Origin: Halomicronema hongdechloris C2206
Lineage (GTDB): Bacteria > Cyanobacteriota > Cyanobacteriia > Phormidesmidales > Phormidesmidaceae
DNA: 32,000 nucleotides
Reading direction: 5' to 3'
NCBI RefSeq assembly: GCF_002075285.3
Contig: NZ_CP021983.2
Span: forward strand, 2,250,001 to 2,282,000
In this document: positions 25,709 through 32,000 of the stretch, piece by piece
Position numbering within the stretch: position 1 is the first letter of the stretch
Layout: each line of letters starts with the position of its first letter
Position numbers and translations under genes: made by a program
Notes under the pieces: model-generated
What the model was told of the DNA's origin: nothing
The model's input: the letters and a program-made list of their open reading frames with translations, nothing else
Databases searched by the model: none

Positions 25709-26413
25709 CTACTGGCCGAAGGCACCGAGGCCGTAGTAACAATAAGGAGCGGCGCAGTTCGGCATAATCACATTGATGGTGAAGGGGCCATCCCATTGGG
25801 GAGTGACTTCCACAATGGGCATAGCATCTGTCTCCGTATCCGAGTCAATTAAGTTGCCGTTCTCATCATAGAGTTCTAGGTCCATATCGCCACAATCACT
25901 GTCACAGACGCCGATGATGCCATAGGAAACGCCACCGCGCAGATCCAGGGTGATTGGTTCTTGGGTGTTGTCTGCCAGTTGGCCTAGGTAGGGTTCATGG
26001 GTGAGATCAAAGCCATTTAGGCCGGCCTGCTCGCTGACGGCAACCAACTGCTGGCCCACCTGAGCTCGGAAGGCCTGATCGGGATCGGTTGCGGATGCTG
26101 ATGTCGGTTCTGGGGTAGGGGGATTACTGATGGGGGTCGGTGCTGGAGTTGGGGGGTCAGGTCCTTCAGTGGATTCGGTGGCATCGGTGGTCGAATCCTC
26201 GGTGGGAGTACTCTCCTCGCTGGTGTCTACAGGGGAAACCTCGCTGAGGCCAATGCCCATCAGAATAATAAAGATTCCCATGCCGATGGAGGCGGCGCGG
26301 GGGATGGTTCCAATTTTGGGAATGGAGATATCTCTAATAGATAGCCCACCGCCCCACAGGCCCGTGGACAGTAAGATAGCTCCGAAAATGAAGGCGACGA
26401 TATCGATGCTCAT
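25709..26413 (-). CDS. Membrane-anchored hypothetical protein with acidic/Pro-rich linker and Cys-containing beta-rich C-terminal domain
   Basis: Start at ATG 26413 (MSIDIVAFIFGAILL...). Two N-terminal TM helices, a linker (TSEESTPTEDSTTDATESTEGPDPPTPAPTP), and a C-terminal segment ITLDLRGGVSYGIIGVCDSDCGDMDLELYDENGNLIDSD reminiscent of pre-peptidase C-terminal-type domains. Confidence 0.6.
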   Translation of the reverse strand: MSIDIVAFIFGAILLSTGLWGGGLSIRDISIPKIGTIPRAASIGMGIFIILMGIGLSEVSPVDTSEESTPTEDSTTDATESTEGPDPPTPAPTPISNPPTPEPTSASATDPDQAFRAQVGQQLVAVSEQAGLNGFDLTHEPYLGQLADNTQEPITLDLRGGVSYGIIGVCDSDCGDMDLELYDENGNLIDSDTETDAMPIVEVTPQWDGPFTINVIMPNCAAPYCYYGLGAFGQ

Positions 26414-26647
26414 AATGTCCTCTTGATGGCTGATGGTGTACGTAGCGTTTGCCAGCCAGGTGAGCAATAGCTAGATCGGTCAACGGCTAGATTAAGGGGC
26501 TGACTAGCTGGCCATCGCACAGCATGTTGTGGCGATAGCTATCGGTCGGCTTGCATGGGCGATGCTCCTATAGAGAATACTTCATGACCATCAGCCCTGA
26601 TTCCGTAAATATCCGGTAGTCGTCGGTTTGCAGCTAGGAAAACTCAG

Positions 26648-27816
26648 TCAGGGGCTATCTGGGGCGTAGCGCTGGGCCAGGGCCAAGGCATTCTGTCGAT
26701 GTTGGGCAGCTAGTTCCTTGGGGGTCAAAATCTGGGCCAAGTGCATGAAGCGATTGACCCAATGGCTGAATTCTCGCAAGGATCGCGGTGGCAGTTGCAC
26801 CGAGAAATCGACATGGGGGTCCCCCTGGGTGTGCCCTCTTCTGAGGCGCTGACTGGGGTGACGACGTTCTCCTTCTAGGATGAATTCAGCTACCGGATGG
26901 AAGAAGCGCACCTTTACCGAGACCAGTTTGCCCTGGCCCGAACGTTCTTGTTGTTGCTCTTCTGAGGTGCCTAGGTAGAGCCCCCACCCCTGCTTTAATA
27001 ATTGGTGGGCTACTTCTAGGCGTTGAGTTTGTGCCTGCAGACTGCGGCACTCATAGTCCAAGGCTGTAACCTGCTCACTGAGGCGATCGACCCGGGCGAT
27101 CTCTAAATGCTGATTGTGCAGATGCTCATAGAGGAGATACCAGGCGGTGTCAGCGTAGATCAGCTGCAGGGGATAGACGGTGAGGTGGCCTGTGCCCATG
27201 CTGCCGTAGGGGTCGCGATGACGCATTAACTCTAGGGATTGGCCGGTTGCGATCGCACGTTCCACAACATCTAGGGCATGAAATAGGGTGCGGCGATAGT
27301 GCCCCTTGGCCATCATCTCATCAGGGTCGGTGTAGACGATGGTGCGGCTAAGGTGAGTGCGCACCGGGTAGAATAGCTGGCCCTGGAGTTCTAGATTCAG
27401 GCCTCGCAGGCGGCGTTCTAGGGTGCTGTAGAGTTTGCGGATACGTGGGTCGCCTTGGTGTTGGGCTTGGCTGGCCAGGGCTTGCAGGGCGGCGCGCAGT
27501 TCGTCGCTGGTGAAGACGCCGCTGCCTAAATAGTAACCCCAGCGATACATGCGCTGTTCTAGGATGCCGTAGCGGCGCAGGGTTTTGAGATCTTTGCGAA
27601 TGGTGTGGACTGAGTAGTCAGGCAAGATAATGCCAAGCCATTGAGCCGTCTGTTGCATTGTTTGCACGATGGCGGCGGCGGCGTCATGGTCGCCGGGGGT
27701 GTGATCATCGGGGTCGGGGGCCCCACGCCGGGGTGGCGCACCAGGGTGGCAATCAACACCATCAGCCGCTCGAGCGCGGACGGTTCTGTGTAGGAGCTTG
27801 GCGGAGTGTTGCCCAT
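26648..27816 (-). pseudogene. WYL-domain transcriptional regulator (HTH-WYL-WCX), frameshifted near its N-terminus
   Basis: WYL core HLTVYPLQLIYADTAWYLLYEH and HTH-like TIRKDLKTLRRYGILEQ lie in ORF 26648..27832. The conserved-looking N-terminus SALERLMVLIATLVRHPGVG lies in ORF 27559..27816, in another frame. The frames meet at GGGGG/CCCC 27716-27724. Divergent from the cas10 operon. Confidence 0.75.
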
Positions 27817-27881
27817 TATGGCTGCATGTCAATTAAAAGAAAATATTCCTGATGGCTGGCCTGGCCTGTAGAAGCTCTAAT

Positions 27882-27933: not shown

Positions 27934-27998
27934 AGCGCCTCTCGATGGTCCCTTGTTAAATTGGGCGCTAACTCAGGCACTTTCCGAGGATAGGTACT

Positions 27999-28097
27999 GT
28001 GTCAACAGCATTCTGGCAAGCCAAGATCTGGGGTTTGTTGCATGATCCTGCCTTAAGGAACTCGCATCATGTCTCCCAGCAAGAGGTGATGGCATGA
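27999..28097 (+). CDS. 32-codon micro-ORF encoding a Cas10/Cmr2 N-terminal HD-motif remnant
   Basis: The GTG-initiated ORF translates to VSTAFWQAKIWGLLHDPALRNSHHVSQQEVMA. WQAK..LLHDP..K is the HD-motif start of Cmr2 proteins (compare P. furiosus ...YLHDPPDKAL). Its stop overlaps the cas10 ATG (ATGA at 28094-28097). Confidence 0.45.
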   Translation: MSTAFWQAKIWGLLHDPALRNSHHVSQQEVMA

Positions 28098-29650
28098 CTG
28101 AGACAATCTACACGGCCATCAGCTTCGCCCCAGTTCAAGGATTCATTGAAAAATCGCGTAAGTTGCGAGATCTCTATGGAGCCTCAGGACTGCTGTCTTA
28201 TCTAGCTAAACAACTGGTTGAAGCTAAACCCGAGAATTGCAGCGTCATTTCTCCGGCATCAGTTAATTTGCAGCAGGGCATGCCTAATCGCATCTTGATT
28301 CGCGGCGATTACCCTCGCAATTTAGCCCAGCAAACCTTGCTGCAATCCTGGCAAAAAATCTTAGACGACTCTCGTAATTGGGTTGAAAGGCGTTTGCAGT
28401 CAACCTTTCCCCCTGACAGCTATCACTGGCAAGAGGTGTGGGATAAATGGGGACGCTATCACTGGGAGGTGTTTTGGGGCCATGGCAATTCTATTCAAGC
28501 TGCCATGGATGACTTGGAAACTCGAAAATTACGTCGGGATTGGGTCGCCGTAAACTGGGTCGGTGAAAGCTCTAGCCTATCTGGGGTGGATGCCATTGCC
28601 TGGCCAGGCCTGGGAGCATTCAATTCTGATCCGGGGTGGCCGATTGCAACTGCTGAAAAGCAGCAGCTTGATAGCTTTTATCAAGTGCTAGATAAATCTC
28701 TCAGCCACCCTGGTACCGGTGAAGACGACACGACAGGGCGATTTTTAGCCTCCAATGAACGCCTGAGCGTGCCTGAGTTGGTTAAACGCCTAGTCACTTG
28801 GCCGCAACTCGCTAAAAAGCTAGGCATTACTGAACTGGAATCCGGCTTTACCGATATCCATCGCAACACTCGTGATGGCAAGGGGCAGTGGACCGGCTGG
28901 TTCATGGGGGATGGCGATAAAGTAGGCGATCACCTCAAGGAAATTGCCAAGTCTGGAGATCAGGCTATTGCCGACTTTAGTCAGGCCATGCGGCAGTGGG
29001 GAAAAACCTTTAGCCAGTCTATGCCTAAGCAGAAGGGGCGCGTCATTTATGCCGGTGGGGACGACTTCCTGGGAGTACTCTATGGCCAATCTCCCGATCA
29101 CCCATTAGCCCCCAAAGCAGCCTTGGAGTGGTTGATGGGATTGAACGCCCAATGGCAACAACATGGCTATGACCTCACCGTAAGTGTCGGGTTTGTTTGG
29201 GTTTCTCCACATGTGCCCCAACGAGATGTGCTACAACATTGCCGCCAAGCCCAAAAACGCTCTAAACGGCTTGGGCGTGATCGAGTCACGATTCGAATTG
29301 TGTTCAATAGCGGCCAGTCGGTGCAATGGACCTGCCGCTGGCAAGATTTAGGCGTATTGACAGGATATTGCGATCGCAACGGCAAGCGCTGGGACGAAAC
29401 CCCTAACTGGGTACATCTCCTCACCGACTGGCAACACTTGAAAGCCCGCCATGCCATTCCCGTCAAAGCCAGCGAAGAGCACATCGACCAGCAAATTGCC
29501 ATCGAGTTTTTCGAGATTTACTTTCCCGGTTATAAGCAGTACCTGCTGAATCATAGCCAAGACATTTTAGGCAATGATGATAACCCCAGGGCCATGATCG
29601 ATTGGATTGAAGGGGCAATTCAAGTGGGCTGGTATCTAGGCTCAGCCTAA
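28094..29650 (+). CDS. cas10: Type III CRISPR Cas10/Cmr2 large subunit, short form lacking the HD domain
   Basis: 518 aa. Starts at the palm-1 entry motif YTAISFAPVQGFIEKSRKLRDLYGASGLLSYL. Has GWFMGDGDKVG and the cyclase motif VIYAGGDDFLG (GGDD at 29054-29065). Followed by cmr3- and cmr4-like genes. Confidence 0.85.
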   Translation: MTETIYTAISFAPVQGFIEKSRKLRDLYGASGLLSYLAKQLVEAKPENCSVISPASVNLQQGMPNRILIRGDYPRNLAQQTLLQSWQKILDDSRNWVERRLQSTFPPDSYHWQEVWDKWGRYHWEVFWGHGNSIQAAMDDLETRKLRRDWVAVNWVGESSSLSGVDAIAWPGLGAFNSDPGWPIATAEKQQLDSFYQVLDKSLSHPGTGEDDTTGRFLASNERLSVPELVKRLVTWPQLAKKLGITELESGFTDIHRNTRDGKGQWTGWFMGDGDKVGDHLKEIAKSGDQAIADFSQAMRQWGKTFSQSMPKQKGRVIYAGGDDFLGVLYGQSPDHPLAPKAALEWLMGLNAQWQQHGYDLTVSVGFVWVSPHVPQRDVLQHCRQAQKRSKRLGRDRVTIRIVFNSGQSVQWTCRWQDLGVLTGYCDRNGKRWDETPNWVHLLTDWQHLKARHAIPVKASEEHIDQQIAIEFFEIYFPGYKQYLLNHSQDILGNDDNPRAMIDWIEGAIQVGWYLGSA

Positions 29651-29689
29651 TCGGTCTGTGACAGCATCTCTCATTTATCCGAAATCGTT

Positions 29690-30760
29690 ATGTTTACTCA
29701 CCTGATTACCATTTCTCCATTGGGGTTTCTCTACGGCAGTGCCGGGGCCTTCCTAACCCCTGAGAATCTGGTAGGGCTAGCGGGGACTAAATTTCCCCCC
29801 GATGCCTCTACCCTCGCTGGGCTCATCTTTAGTGCATTAAAAACTGGACACCTAGAGGCTGAAAATCTGACTCAGGACCAGTTGCGAGAGCAGCTATTTG
29901 TGGCAGGTCCCTTCTGGGCCAATGTCAGCGACCCCCACAATTTCTACATTCCAGTTCCCCGCCATAAGATTCTGGGCGACAAGGACACAGATCAATGGGA
30001 AATTCGCAACTACCACTGGTGGCGCGACGAAACTACCCATCCAGATATAGAAGCAGACTATCACTGGCAGCGCATCGATACCTGGGACTACTCTCCAGAT
30101 GAAATCAAGGCAAACCAGGCCGCCGCTAAAGATGTCTGGACCCATGTGCCCATGCTGCATCCCAGCCTCAAATCTGATGAACGCCATGTCCGCGACGAGA
30201 ATGGCTTGTTTTTAGAAAACGCCGTGCAAATGCAGCCCAATCAATGGGACGGCGGCTATGACGAAACTTGCCTGGTGTATTTATCCACCATTGCCCTCAA
30301 GCCAGGGTGGTATCGCTTTGGAGGAGAAAGTCATCTGGTTGAAATCTCGAGCCATGAACTGGATGAGACCAGCCCCATCGTGGAGTTGTTGCAACGCCCC
30401 ATTGAGGATTCCTTTGCTCTGATCGGGCCTGGCATATGGGGCTCCAACCATCTCTCGCTGCGCTATCCCAGGCACTCAGACTTTTCTGAACGACGTCCCA
30501 TGATGCTGACCGATCGCCCCAATCCCTATCGCTATCGCCTGGGTAGCCAATCTGGGGAGTATCAAACCGGCCCCATGCGCAAAGCCGGACGCCTAAGCCG
30601 GGGACGCTACGCAGTCCCTACGGGTACGGTCTATGTCTTCAAAGACCCTCTGGGTAAATCCTGGTGGGATTGGCCAGAGGACTGGTTTCCCAAAGAAGGC
30701 TTTCCCCTAAAACACTTGGGCTGCAATCTCAGCCTACCCGTTGAAATTTCTAGGAGTTAA
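29690..30760 (+). CDS. cmr3: Type III-B Cmr3-like RAMP subunit
   Basis: 356 aa directly after cas10. The N-terminal block ISPLGFLYGSAGAFLTPENLVGLAGTKFPPDASTLAGLI resembles the Cmr3 start (F..G..F....S.FPP.PST.AG). Position in the operon agrees. Confidence 0.7.
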   Translation: MFTHLITISPLGFLYGSAGAFLTPENLVGLAGTKFPPDASTLAGLIFSALKTGHLEAENLTQDQLREQLFVAGPFWANVSDPHNFYIPVPRHKILGDKDTDQWEIRNYHWWRDETTHPDIEADYHWQRIDTWDYSPDEIKANQAAAKDVWTHVPMLHPSLKSDERHVRDENGLFLENAVQMQPNQWDGGYDETCLVYLSTIALKPGWYRFGGESHLVEISSHELDETSPIVELLQRPIEDSFALIGPGIWGSNHLSLRYPRHSDFSERRPMMLTDRPNPYRYRLGSQSGEYQTGPMRKAGRLSRGRYAVPTGTVYVFKDPLGKSWWDWPEDWFPKEGFPLKHLGCNLSLPVEISRS

Positions 30761-30764
30761 CGTC

Positions 30765-31595
30765 ATGTATGCAAAGGCCTACGGCATTATCGAAACCCTA
30801 GCCCCCCTGCATGTTGGGGCCAGCGCTGGGGAGGAAAGTGGTAACCTGAATCTCATTTTTCGCGATCAATTTACGCAGACTGGCATCATTCCTGGTAGTT
30901 CCATTCGCGGCCGGTTCCGAGCTGATATGCGCTCAGGATCAGAAGATGAGAACACCTGGTATGGCCATGAAGCCATTGAAGGACGGGAAGACGGTGGCAC
31001 TACAGAAGCCATCGTTAAGTTTGAGCATGCCTCGCTGGTATGGCTGCCGGTTTTTTGTCCTGGGCAACCCATCGTCTGGATCACATGTCCCTACTTGCTG
31101 AAGCGCTATGGGCGAATCAGGCAGATAGAGGCTGAAATACCAGATCCCTACACGGCTCCTAGGGGCTTGCCAGGTCGTCAAGTAGACACTACCAAGAAAG
31201 TTCTATTCTTTAACCTTGGCTTTTTAGAAATCGAGCGCGAAGCGGATCTATCTGCCTGGGTGCCCAATAAAGAGGGAACAGATAAAAAGCTGATCGATCC
31301 TAACTTAACCGTTGTCGTTGCAGATGGTGATATTGCCATGTTGCACGATATGGCCCTCTACCGCCAAAGTCGGGTCAAACTCGTGGATGACATGAAGAAG
31401 GTTGATACTGAAAAAGGTGCGTTCTTTAACGTAGAAGCCCTGCCAGAAGGTAGTATCTTGATTTTCCCCATTGCCCTTAAACAAACCGGCTGGCAACCTT
31501 TTGAAGCGGGAGAGAAGACTGAAGAACTCTACTTTGGCGGCCTAGAATCCGTGGGTTTTGGTCGCTGCCAAGTCACGATTGGAGGTAAGTATTAA
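30765..31595 (+). CDS. cmr4: Cmr4-like RAMP backbone subunit
   Basis: ATG at 30765, 8 nt after TAGGAG and 4 nt after the cmr3 stop. Motifs LAPLHVGASAG...IIPGSSIRGRFR and C-terminal GGLESVGFGRCQV (RAMP G-rich loop). Confidence 0.75.
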   Translation: MYAKAYGIIETLAPLHVGASAGEESGNLNLIFRDQFTQTGIIPGSSIRGRFRADMRSGSEDENTWYGHEAIEGREDGGTTEAIVKFEHASLVWLPVFCPGQPIVWITCPYLLKRYGRIRQIEAEIPDPYTAPRGLPGRQVDTTKKVLFFNLGFLEIEREADLSAWVPNKEGTDKKLIDPNLTVVVADGDIAMLHDMALYRQSRVKLVDDMKKVDTEKGAFFNVEALPEGSILIFPIALKQTGWQPFEAGEKTEELYFGGLESVGFGRCQVTIGGKY

Positions 31596-31597
31596 TC

Positions 31598-32000
31598 ATG
31601 GCCTGGAATTCCTATGGCTTAGACCGAGAAGCCCAACAACTCGTCTTATCTGCTCGACGGCGGGATGAAGCTCTGCCAAAAGCTGAGCGTTCCAAGAAGG
31701 CATCCCTCAATCAAGGGCACAAAATGCGTATGGCCATCCCCTATGGCTTAGAGCGTTTCTGGGGTGAACATCTGCGACTGCAAGAGAAAGAGCGAAATAA
31801 ATCGATCTACTGGAAAGAAACCTGGGATGCCTTTGTGCGAGTGATGGATATCGCTGGAATCGAAATTCCCAACGATGATGTCAGCTATTCAGACACCAGC
31901 GGCATCCAAAGCATGTCCGAAAGGCTTTGGGAATTAGACCTTAAAAAGCAGCGTGTAGCCCTAGCCGTACTCACACAACTCTGTGATGCGCTGGTGTGGT
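31598..32000 (+). CDS. Hypothetical helical protein in the cmr5 (small-subunit) position; partial, runs off the right edge
   Basis: ATG at 31598, 2 nt after the cmr4 stop. The frame is open to the window end (MAWNSYGLDREAQQLVLSARRRDEALPK...RVALAVLTQLCDALVW). It is not in the ORF track because it has no stop. It does not resemble the canonical Cmr5 I remember. Confidence 0.55.
   Translation, partial: MAWNSYGLDREAQQLVLSARRRDEALPKAERSKKASLNQGHKMRMAIPYGLERFWGEHLRLQEKERNKSIYWKETWDAFVRVMDIAGIEIPNDDVSYSDTSGIQSMSERLWELDLKKQRVALAVLTQLCDALVW

Follow-up and report, generated by a model that had tools for sequence, protein, structure and literature searches.

A seemingly orphan Cas10 operon in Halomicronema hongdechloris, read as the 5′ part of a cyanobacterial type III-B variant locus with a putative relic of an older cas10

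Can a type III CRISPR effector operon stand on its own, with no array, no adaptation genes and no effector for cyclic oligoadenylate (cOA) signals, or does it only seem to do so at the edge of a sequence? The question is raised by the 3′ end of a 32-kb stretch of the Halomicronema hongdechloris C2206 genome (NZ_CP021983.2, 2,250,001-2,282,000; hereafter the window), where a listing of open reading frames (ORFs) and profile searches identify four co-directional genes, cas10, cmr3, cmr4 and cmr5. A first-pass annotation of the same DNA had proposed a module without array, adaptation genes or cOA effectors, perhaps borrowing CRISPR RNAs (crRNAs) made elsewhere. The answer that we favor, at a probability of roughly 80%, is that these genes form the 5′ third of a ~20-kb cyanobacterial locus, a complete type III-B variant belonging to a lineage (clade A) sister to the III-Bv system CRISPR3 of Synechocystis 6803. 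The missing parts were absent from view because the window is cut there: they begin 1.9 kb past its end and run on within 16.5 kb, on the same strand.

Within the window, the first-pass gene order stands for three of the four genes. The first is cas10/cmr2 (28094..29650, + strand; 518 aa; PADLOC Cas10b PDLC02051, E 2.6e-204), followed by cmr3 (29690..30760, +; Pfam Cas_Cmr3 E 1.3e-6, PADLOC Cmr3 E 3e-12) and by the gene for the backbone subunit, cmr4 (30765..31595, +; TIGR02580 and PADLOC Cmr4). For cmr4, homologues make the ATG at 30765 the likely start, the longest ORF opening at a TTG at 30741. The fourth gene, previously called unknown, is cmr5, encoding the small subunit (31598..32000, +, cut by the window end; PADLOC PDLC01476, E 1e-55 truncated and 5e-61 (5.3e-61) full). 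A general repeat scan found no CRISPR-like repeats in the whole 32-kb window, and ORF and profile searches found no cas6, cas1, cas2 or CARF effector within its 25.7-32 kb part; the earlier reader had been right on both counts, having reported repeats absent upstream of the operon and the same genes absent around it.

The rest of the locus was read from a 20-kb segment, L001 (NZ_CP021983.2 2278000-2297999; an L001 coordinate plus 27999 gives the window-equivalent coordinate). As had been anticipated, the operon continues beyond the window, with the complete cmr5 (L001 3599-4051, 150 aa) and a gene for a 581-aa fused Cmr6/Cmr1-like protein of the repeat-associated mysterious protein (RAMP) type (L001 3984-5729, +; PADLOC PDLC01212, E 3.4e-224). 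Farther on lie csx1, encoding a CARF-HEPN protein (L001 5860-7353, +; profile E 3e-139), a second CARF-HEPN gene (L001 9037-10473, +; profile E 1e-200), an array of 4 repeats (L001 13346-13597, 9.3 kb past the window end), cas1 (L001 15252-16244, +; Pfam E 1.4e-85), cas2 (L001 16249-16527, +) and an array of 25 repeats (L001 16712-18527, 12.7 kb past the window end), and mutS2, from L001 18950, bounds the locus. Both CARF-HEPN proteins have an R-N-x-x-x-H motif. Spacers of the 25-repeat array measure 34-47 nt, and the 27 spacers of the two arrays are all unique. With two arrays, cas1-cas2 and two Csx1 proteins downstream, the proposal of a module lacking all three no longer holds. Of the components that would make for an ordinary locus in the eyes of the first-pass annotation, an array, a canonical effector and typing as an ordinary III-B variant were found downstream, while cas6 is truly missing.

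How, then, should the locus be classed? Cas10/Cmr2 and Cmr3 to Cmr6 sit in one operon with an associated array, as in type III-B, but there is no separate Cmr1: profile searches found no stand-alone cmr1 in the locus, and a Cmr1-like fold would instead sit fused in the 581-aa Cmr6. This protein is homologous to the Synechocystis fusion Sll7085 across two RAMP domains. A single-sequence AlphaFold 2 model of it was useless (mean predicted local distance difference test score, pLDDT, 33), and a rerun with a 19-sequence alignment gave a model of moderate confidence (pLDDT 67; predicted template modeling score 0.69) that matches Cmr6 chains, Cmr1 chains and the fused Cas7 proteins of III-D and III-E complexes. 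Subtype III-Bv, whose prototype is CRISPR3 of pSYSA (Scholz 2013, PMC3575380; Behler 2018 as relayed in PMC6546367 and PMC12464536), has as its defining traits a Cmr1-Cmr6 fusion, the lack of Cas6, and maturation by RNase E leaving 13-14-nt handles (PMC6546367, PMC12464536). The locus here shares the lack of cas6, the 36-nt repeat layout and, as modeled, the fusion, so that neither the missing cas6 nor the missing stand-alone cmr1 is anomalous: both are known for the subtype. It does not have the ~1000-aa, HD-bearing, Sll7090-type Cas10 of III-Bv, and hence we treat it as a sister lineage and not as a strict III-Bv orthologue.

The repeat (L001 16712-16747) agrees with the CRISPR3 repeat (sequence from PMC3575380, Table 1) at 31 of 36 positions, with a compensatory change in a stem pair. 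Its predicted fold is that of CRISPR3, a stem at nt 2-18 followed by a single-stranded tail, the layout described in PMC12464536. The tail is AU-rich and ends ...ATTGA(A/T)TGGAAAC (tail end, ATTGAATGGAAAC). Cas6 profiles had zero matches on any ORF of the locus; PF01881 matched nowhere in the genome, and PF10040 matched only at 2.819 Mb, inside a type I-D system. A 239-aa ORF (L001 11376-12095) that might have been a divergent cas6 was rejected: it has no Pfam, NCBIfam or PADLOC match, is rich in Arg, Ser and Pro, lies in repeat debris and is probably spurious. The genome does encode rne (RNase E). Since the locus has no cas6 and its repeat has the III-Bv layout, host RNase E would most likely cut the repeats. 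On this reading, the array would be transcribed from a leader after cas2 and, on Synechocystis experimental precedent, most likely processed by RNase E to crRNAs whose 5′ handle measures 13-14 nt; a complementary transcript, once bound, would then switch on the cyclase site of Cas10 (GDGD and GGDD), and the resulting cOA would activate the two Csx1 CARF-HEPN RNases.

What the complex could do beyond signaling depends on two nuclease sites. The Cas10 opens at the Cmr2_N/palm-1 entry motif, a start that corresponds to residue 218 in Sll7090, the Synechocystis Cas10, and, as had been noted at the outset, it has no HD nuclease domain. All 10 of 10 clade-A relatives begin at the same entry motif without HD, and its loss is therefore a trait of the lineage. 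Pfam matches cover residues 7-48 (Cmr2_N) and 269-398 (Cas10-Cmr2_palm2), and the best sequence match in the Protein Data Bank (PDB) is the Cas10/Cmr2 of entry 9ARW (E 2.8e-10). Both cyclase motifs are intact inside the palm2 match, GDGD at residues 272-275 (28907-28918) and GGDD at 321-324, the latter at exactly the coordinates first reported (29054-29065). A CARF effector is encoded in the same locus, as in type III systems that signal by cOA.

The second site is in Cmr4, where the canonical position for target RNA cleavage holds no Asp or Glu and reads GNLNL (~30837-30851). The reference sites are D26 of Pyrococcus furiosus Cmr4 and D32/33 of Csm3, in the loop after beta-1. With a profile built from 16 Cmr4 sequences, P. 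furiosus Cmr4 is matched from end to end (E 2e-28), and in the alignment to PDB 4RDP/4W8W/4WNZ the catalytic Asp is an insertion relative to the family; the Asp of 9ARW Cmr4 (GNVDL) and that of Csm3 align opposite Asn of GNLNL. This motif is invariant in 9 of 9 clade-A relatives with a recovered Cmr4 N-terminus, and none of the six clade-B Cmr4 sequences, Synechocystis Sll7087 included, has an acidic residue at the catalytic position. On these alignments, the catalytic Asp appears to be lost in both cyanobacterial clades. We found no paper discussing its absence from cyanobacterial lineages; one Microcystis study states that Cmr4 catalysis still requires investigation. With neither an HD domain in Cas10 nor a cleavage Asp in Cmr4, the output would probably rest mainly on the cOA signaling arm. 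The earlier idea of a signaling-dependent system is supported to that extent, by the absence of HD in every relative examined, the intact cyclase motifs, the missing Asp and the two HEPN RNases nearby.

Just upstream of cas10, the locus appears to hold a trace of its own history. The stretch singled out by the first-pass annotation begins at 27999, a position that is not the start of cas10 but opens a separate micro-ORF of 32 codons (27999..28097, +) in a different frame, the TGA of which overlaps the ATG of the HD-less cas10 at 28094. Sixteen of the first 20 residues of this micro-ORF are identical to the N-terminus of Sll7090, both have a GTG start, and a six-frame search of the whole genome with the Sll7090 N-terminus recovers the micro-ORF at E 1.1e-5. 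Its motif FWQAKIWGLLHDPAL is kept in seven clade-B Cas10 N-termini and was not found upstream of cas10 in 10 clade-A relatives; against the PDB, the micro-ORF, a very short query, had no match up to E 10. DNA similarity to the clade-B locus of a same-family genome (G007) tells the same story at another level. The WYL regulator gene upstream is 74% similar over 846 nt, and the similarity resumes collinearly after the same ~225-nt spacing, at 83% over 27996-28049, where the clade-B cas10 of G007 starts; it ends ~45 nt before the HD-less cas10. The micro-ORF is thus best read as what is left of the start of a clade-B (III-Bv) cas10 of the HD-bearing Sll7090 type, and the junction as the putative scar of a recombination that put an HD-less effector cassette in place of an HD-bearing III-Bv-type one, just downstream of codon ~30 in the old gene.

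Simpler accounts of this junction were tried and set aside. An internal deletion within cas10 is excluded because the remainders of the two Cas10 proteins barely align. Nor is a 1-nt error needed to split the micro-ORF from cas10, since the homology to clade-B Cas10 runs for ~28 codons in the micro-ORF's own frame. The fragmented clade-B cas10 of G007 (L045, G007:C67 1037-2928) was considered as an intermediate and proved to be simply a frameshifted full-length gene; its frameshift falls after ~45 codons, near the position of the cassette junction here.

Several points weigh against the reading of a complete and working locus. The spacers have no match among phage records and none elsewhere in the genome. 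Similarity of the Cas10 to Sll7090, the III-Bv prototype, is marginal, and knowledge gained in Synechocystis may therefore not fully transfer. Nearby Glu residues in the same Cmr4 loop could substitute for the lost Asp. Finally, the WYL regulator appears frameshifted and the stretch between effectors and arrays is full of repeats, a toxin-antitoxin insert and spurious ORFs, so that the locus could be partly decaying.

The last of these points can be pressed further, to a decaying remnant from which immunity has gone, and the relic of a former cas10, the mobile inserts and repeat debris between csx1 and the arrays, the homopolymer-length variants in 3 of 25 repeats and the lack of csx18 would all fit. 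We consider this improbable, as none of the eleven cas/csx ORFs is truncated or disrupted and all score strongly against their profiles, no spacer occurs twice, and the homopolymer indels resemble assembly noise, which also peppers the array at 0.82 Mb. Far less credible still is the original notion of an orphan, array-less and effector-less module, for RNA binding or signaling only, living on crRNAs from other loci. The empty window speaks for it, and three more arrays with the same 18-nt repeat tail elsewhere in the genome could also feed the complex; however, cmr5, cmr6, two Csx1 genes, cas1-cas2 and two arrays follow on the same strand within 16.5 kb, and Leptolyngbya boryana keeps the same layout. 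The preferred reading of a complete locus then leaves the question of which enzyme cuts the repeats. The PF10040 match noted above is Cas6d, part of a type I-D system that is complete and lies 0.54 Mb from the present locus; the protein is intact (PADLOC E 3.6e-120), and a 6-repeat satellite array of the present repeat family lies 5.7 kb from the I-D cas2, so that Cas6d rather than RNase E might mature these crRNAs in trans. This has little probability in our view: next to the I-D genes lies that system's own array of 15 repeats, whose quite different sequence ends in ACTGAAAC, and the stem in the repeat here stands 18 nt from the 3′ end, unlike typical Cas6 substrates, which leave an 8-nt handle. 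Moreover, Synechocystis knock-outs of all three cas6 genes spared CRISPR3 crRNAs (PMC3575380), and the homologous repeat is an RNase E substrate (PMC12464536).

More weight attaches to the possibility, still one we would bet against, that target RNA is cleaved after all, through a noncanonical acid of Cmr4 (e.g., a conserved Glu pair) or through the fused Cmr6/1, which would make the locus a dual-output III-B system minus the HD DNase. The N-terminal loop of Cmr4 is identical in 9 clade-A sequences, with Glu23 invariant in both clades, which argues for a functional site, and Synechocystis CRISPR3, whose Cmr4 likewise has no Asp, is active in interference assays (PMC6546367). On the other hand, profile alignments to three solved Cmr4 families and Csm3 show no Asp or Glu at or beside the catalytic column, and interference in vivo needs no target cleavage when signaling is intact. 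The opposite view, which we offer tentatively and also hold to be doubtful, is that clade A and the Synechocystis clade B are natural Cmr complexes that, having lost the Cmr4 Asp, bind target RNA uncut as pure sensors, their cassettes exchangeable behind the same WYL-controlled promoter, of which the cas10 relic here would be an example. Were that true, the duration of the signal would be set by host RNases or ring nucleases rather than by target self-cleavage, in parallel with their dependence on two host RNases, E and J, to mature crRNAs, and in clade A, where the HD DNase is gone too, cOA-activated Csx1 would be the sole output.

Of the upstream neighbors, the one closest to the operon is the gene for a WYL-WCX transcription regulator, divergent from cas10 (26648..27832, −; Pfam WYL and WCX; PADLOC WYL/Csx1 profile E 1.7e-47). 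Because that PADLOC profile is named "CARF+WYL C", the gene was considered as a CARF protein and rejected: the protein has a helix-turn-helix at about residues 60-110 and WYL at 186-253, and the order of helix-turn-helix, WYL and WCX leaves no room. It is 58% identical to the WYL protein upstream of cas10 on L. boryana pLBX, in two high-scoring segment pairs in different frames. The gene reads in two frames at 27703-27748, and alignment of its DNA to the G007 homologue shows a gap of 1 nt at the GGGGGCCCC (G5C4) run. The 5′ end of the gene thus appears frameshifted, be it by a real frameshift or by a homopolymer error of the assembly. The repeats offer some perspective on the latter. Three of 25 repeats of the main array (L001 17317, 17469, 18414) are homopolymer-length-only variants, and in the paralogous array at 0.82 Mb (L038 18075-19973) at least 7 of 25 are off consensus by one homopolymer base. 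These variants suggest unpolished assembly errors in repetitive DNA, a caution that bears on every frameshift call in the genome. Farther upstream, a 252-aa protein (25709-26467, −) has no family match; it shows paired hydrophobic N-terminal helices, a Pro/Thr-rich linker and a Cys-containing C-terminal domain, and nothing ties it to the CRISPR locus.

The stretch between the effector genes and the arrays holds a toxin-antitoxin-like DUF433/DUF5615 pair (L001 8323-9013, +), inserted between the two CARF-HEPN genes, and a DUF3368 PIN-like gene (L001 10544-10996, −; PADLOC PDC-S70); csx18 was not found in the locus. A 186-aa ORF (L001 7538-8098) was weighed as an accessory gene and dismissed on the same grounds as the 239-aa ORF (no Pfam, NCBIfam or PADLOC match; Arg/Ser/Pro-rich; repeat debris), being probably spurious. 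By eye, a stretch of ~60 residues is common to the ORF fragments at L001 7538-8098 and 14087-14338, probably a repeated element or the antisense of a transposase remnant. A neighboring fragment at L001 14490-14726 may be that of a Uma2-family endonuclease.

Other CRISPR loci of this genome show related features. A second clade-A HD-less cassette, from cas10 to cmr6, lies at 814-821 kb (0.82 Mb), accompanied by an array of 25 copies of a different repeat; another copy of the large Cmr6 gene, at 806 kb, has an internal TAG; and a third type III locus at 717-722 kb (0.72 Mb) has an HD-bearing cas10 frame of 1099 aa. The satellite arrays at 2291346-2291597 (4 repeats), 2828010-2828405 (6) and 3044330-3045227 (13) have in common a 35-nt variant of the repeat, in which the 18-nt tail is unchanged. 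Conservation extends to their flanks, with 21-nt tandem repeats upstream and runs of the heptamers GAAGGAT and CTGCCTT downstream, and their trailer is also found 3′ of the main 25-repeat array. All three resemble array cassettes that are duplicated or mobile.

The main value of this work is that of a correction: a seeming orphan type III module is an artifact of the window edge. Beyond this, the scar, if read correctly, directly shows HD-bearing and HD-less type III-B lineages exchanging modules: whole Cmr effector cassettes are swapped, while the WYL regulator, the promoter and the start of cas10 in front of them are conserved. Moreover, the missing cleavage residue of Cmr4 spans both lineages, including the tractable Synechocystis CRISPR3, and the cleavage question is testable in an existing model organism.

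Among known systems, the comparison with the HD-less Cmr complex of 9ARW covers Cas10 and Cmr4: its Cas10 also starts at the palm-1 entry motif without HD, whereas its Cmr4 keeps the catalytic Asp (GNVDL) where the protein here has GNLNL. With CRISPR3 of Synechocystis pSYSA, several features are shared. Cas1 is 55% identical and Cmr4 31%, the latter likewise without the canonical Asp; besides the repeat match and fold given above, the 13-nt handle sequence is similar; both loci have a large fused Cmr6/Cmr1 RAMP, no cas6, and cas1-cas2 directly upstream of the array. In contrast, Sll7090 has 979 aa with an N-terminal domain of ~217 aa, and the HD-less Cas10 of 518 aa barely aligns with it (a tblastn search of plasmids with this Cas10 did not recover pSYSA). 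The present locus also differs in having no csx18 and no peptidase gene, in the placement of all genes on one strand, and in its two Csx1 CARF-HEPN effectors, WYL regulator and upstream relic of an Sll7090-type cas10 start. Among the HD-less clade-A loci is that on pLBX of L. boryana IAM M-101 (NZ_AP014640.1, 437.8-454 kb), with a WYL gene on the minus strand, the order cas10-cmr3-cmr4-cmr5-cmr6-csx1, then cas1-cas2 and an array with the same repeat tail and family. Every subunit is 37-60% identical (Cmr3 54%; Cmr5, in the same slot, 48%), and the pLBX Cas10 has 542 aa. Here pLBX differs by keeping csx18, before cas1-cas2, and by having one csx1, while the H. hongdechloris locus adds a second CARF-HEPN gene, the toxin-antitoxin insert, an extra mini-array and the clade-B cas10 relic. 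The NCBI Prokaryotic Genome Annotation Pipeline already annotates the pLBX genes as type III-B Cas10/Cmr2, Cmr3 and Cmr4, and, of 301 cyanobacterial genomes sampled, 75 encode the large Cmr6 (49 of 144 genera). The locus is thus a member of a common, already annotated cyanobacterial family, in a subtype for which the lack of cas6 is known.

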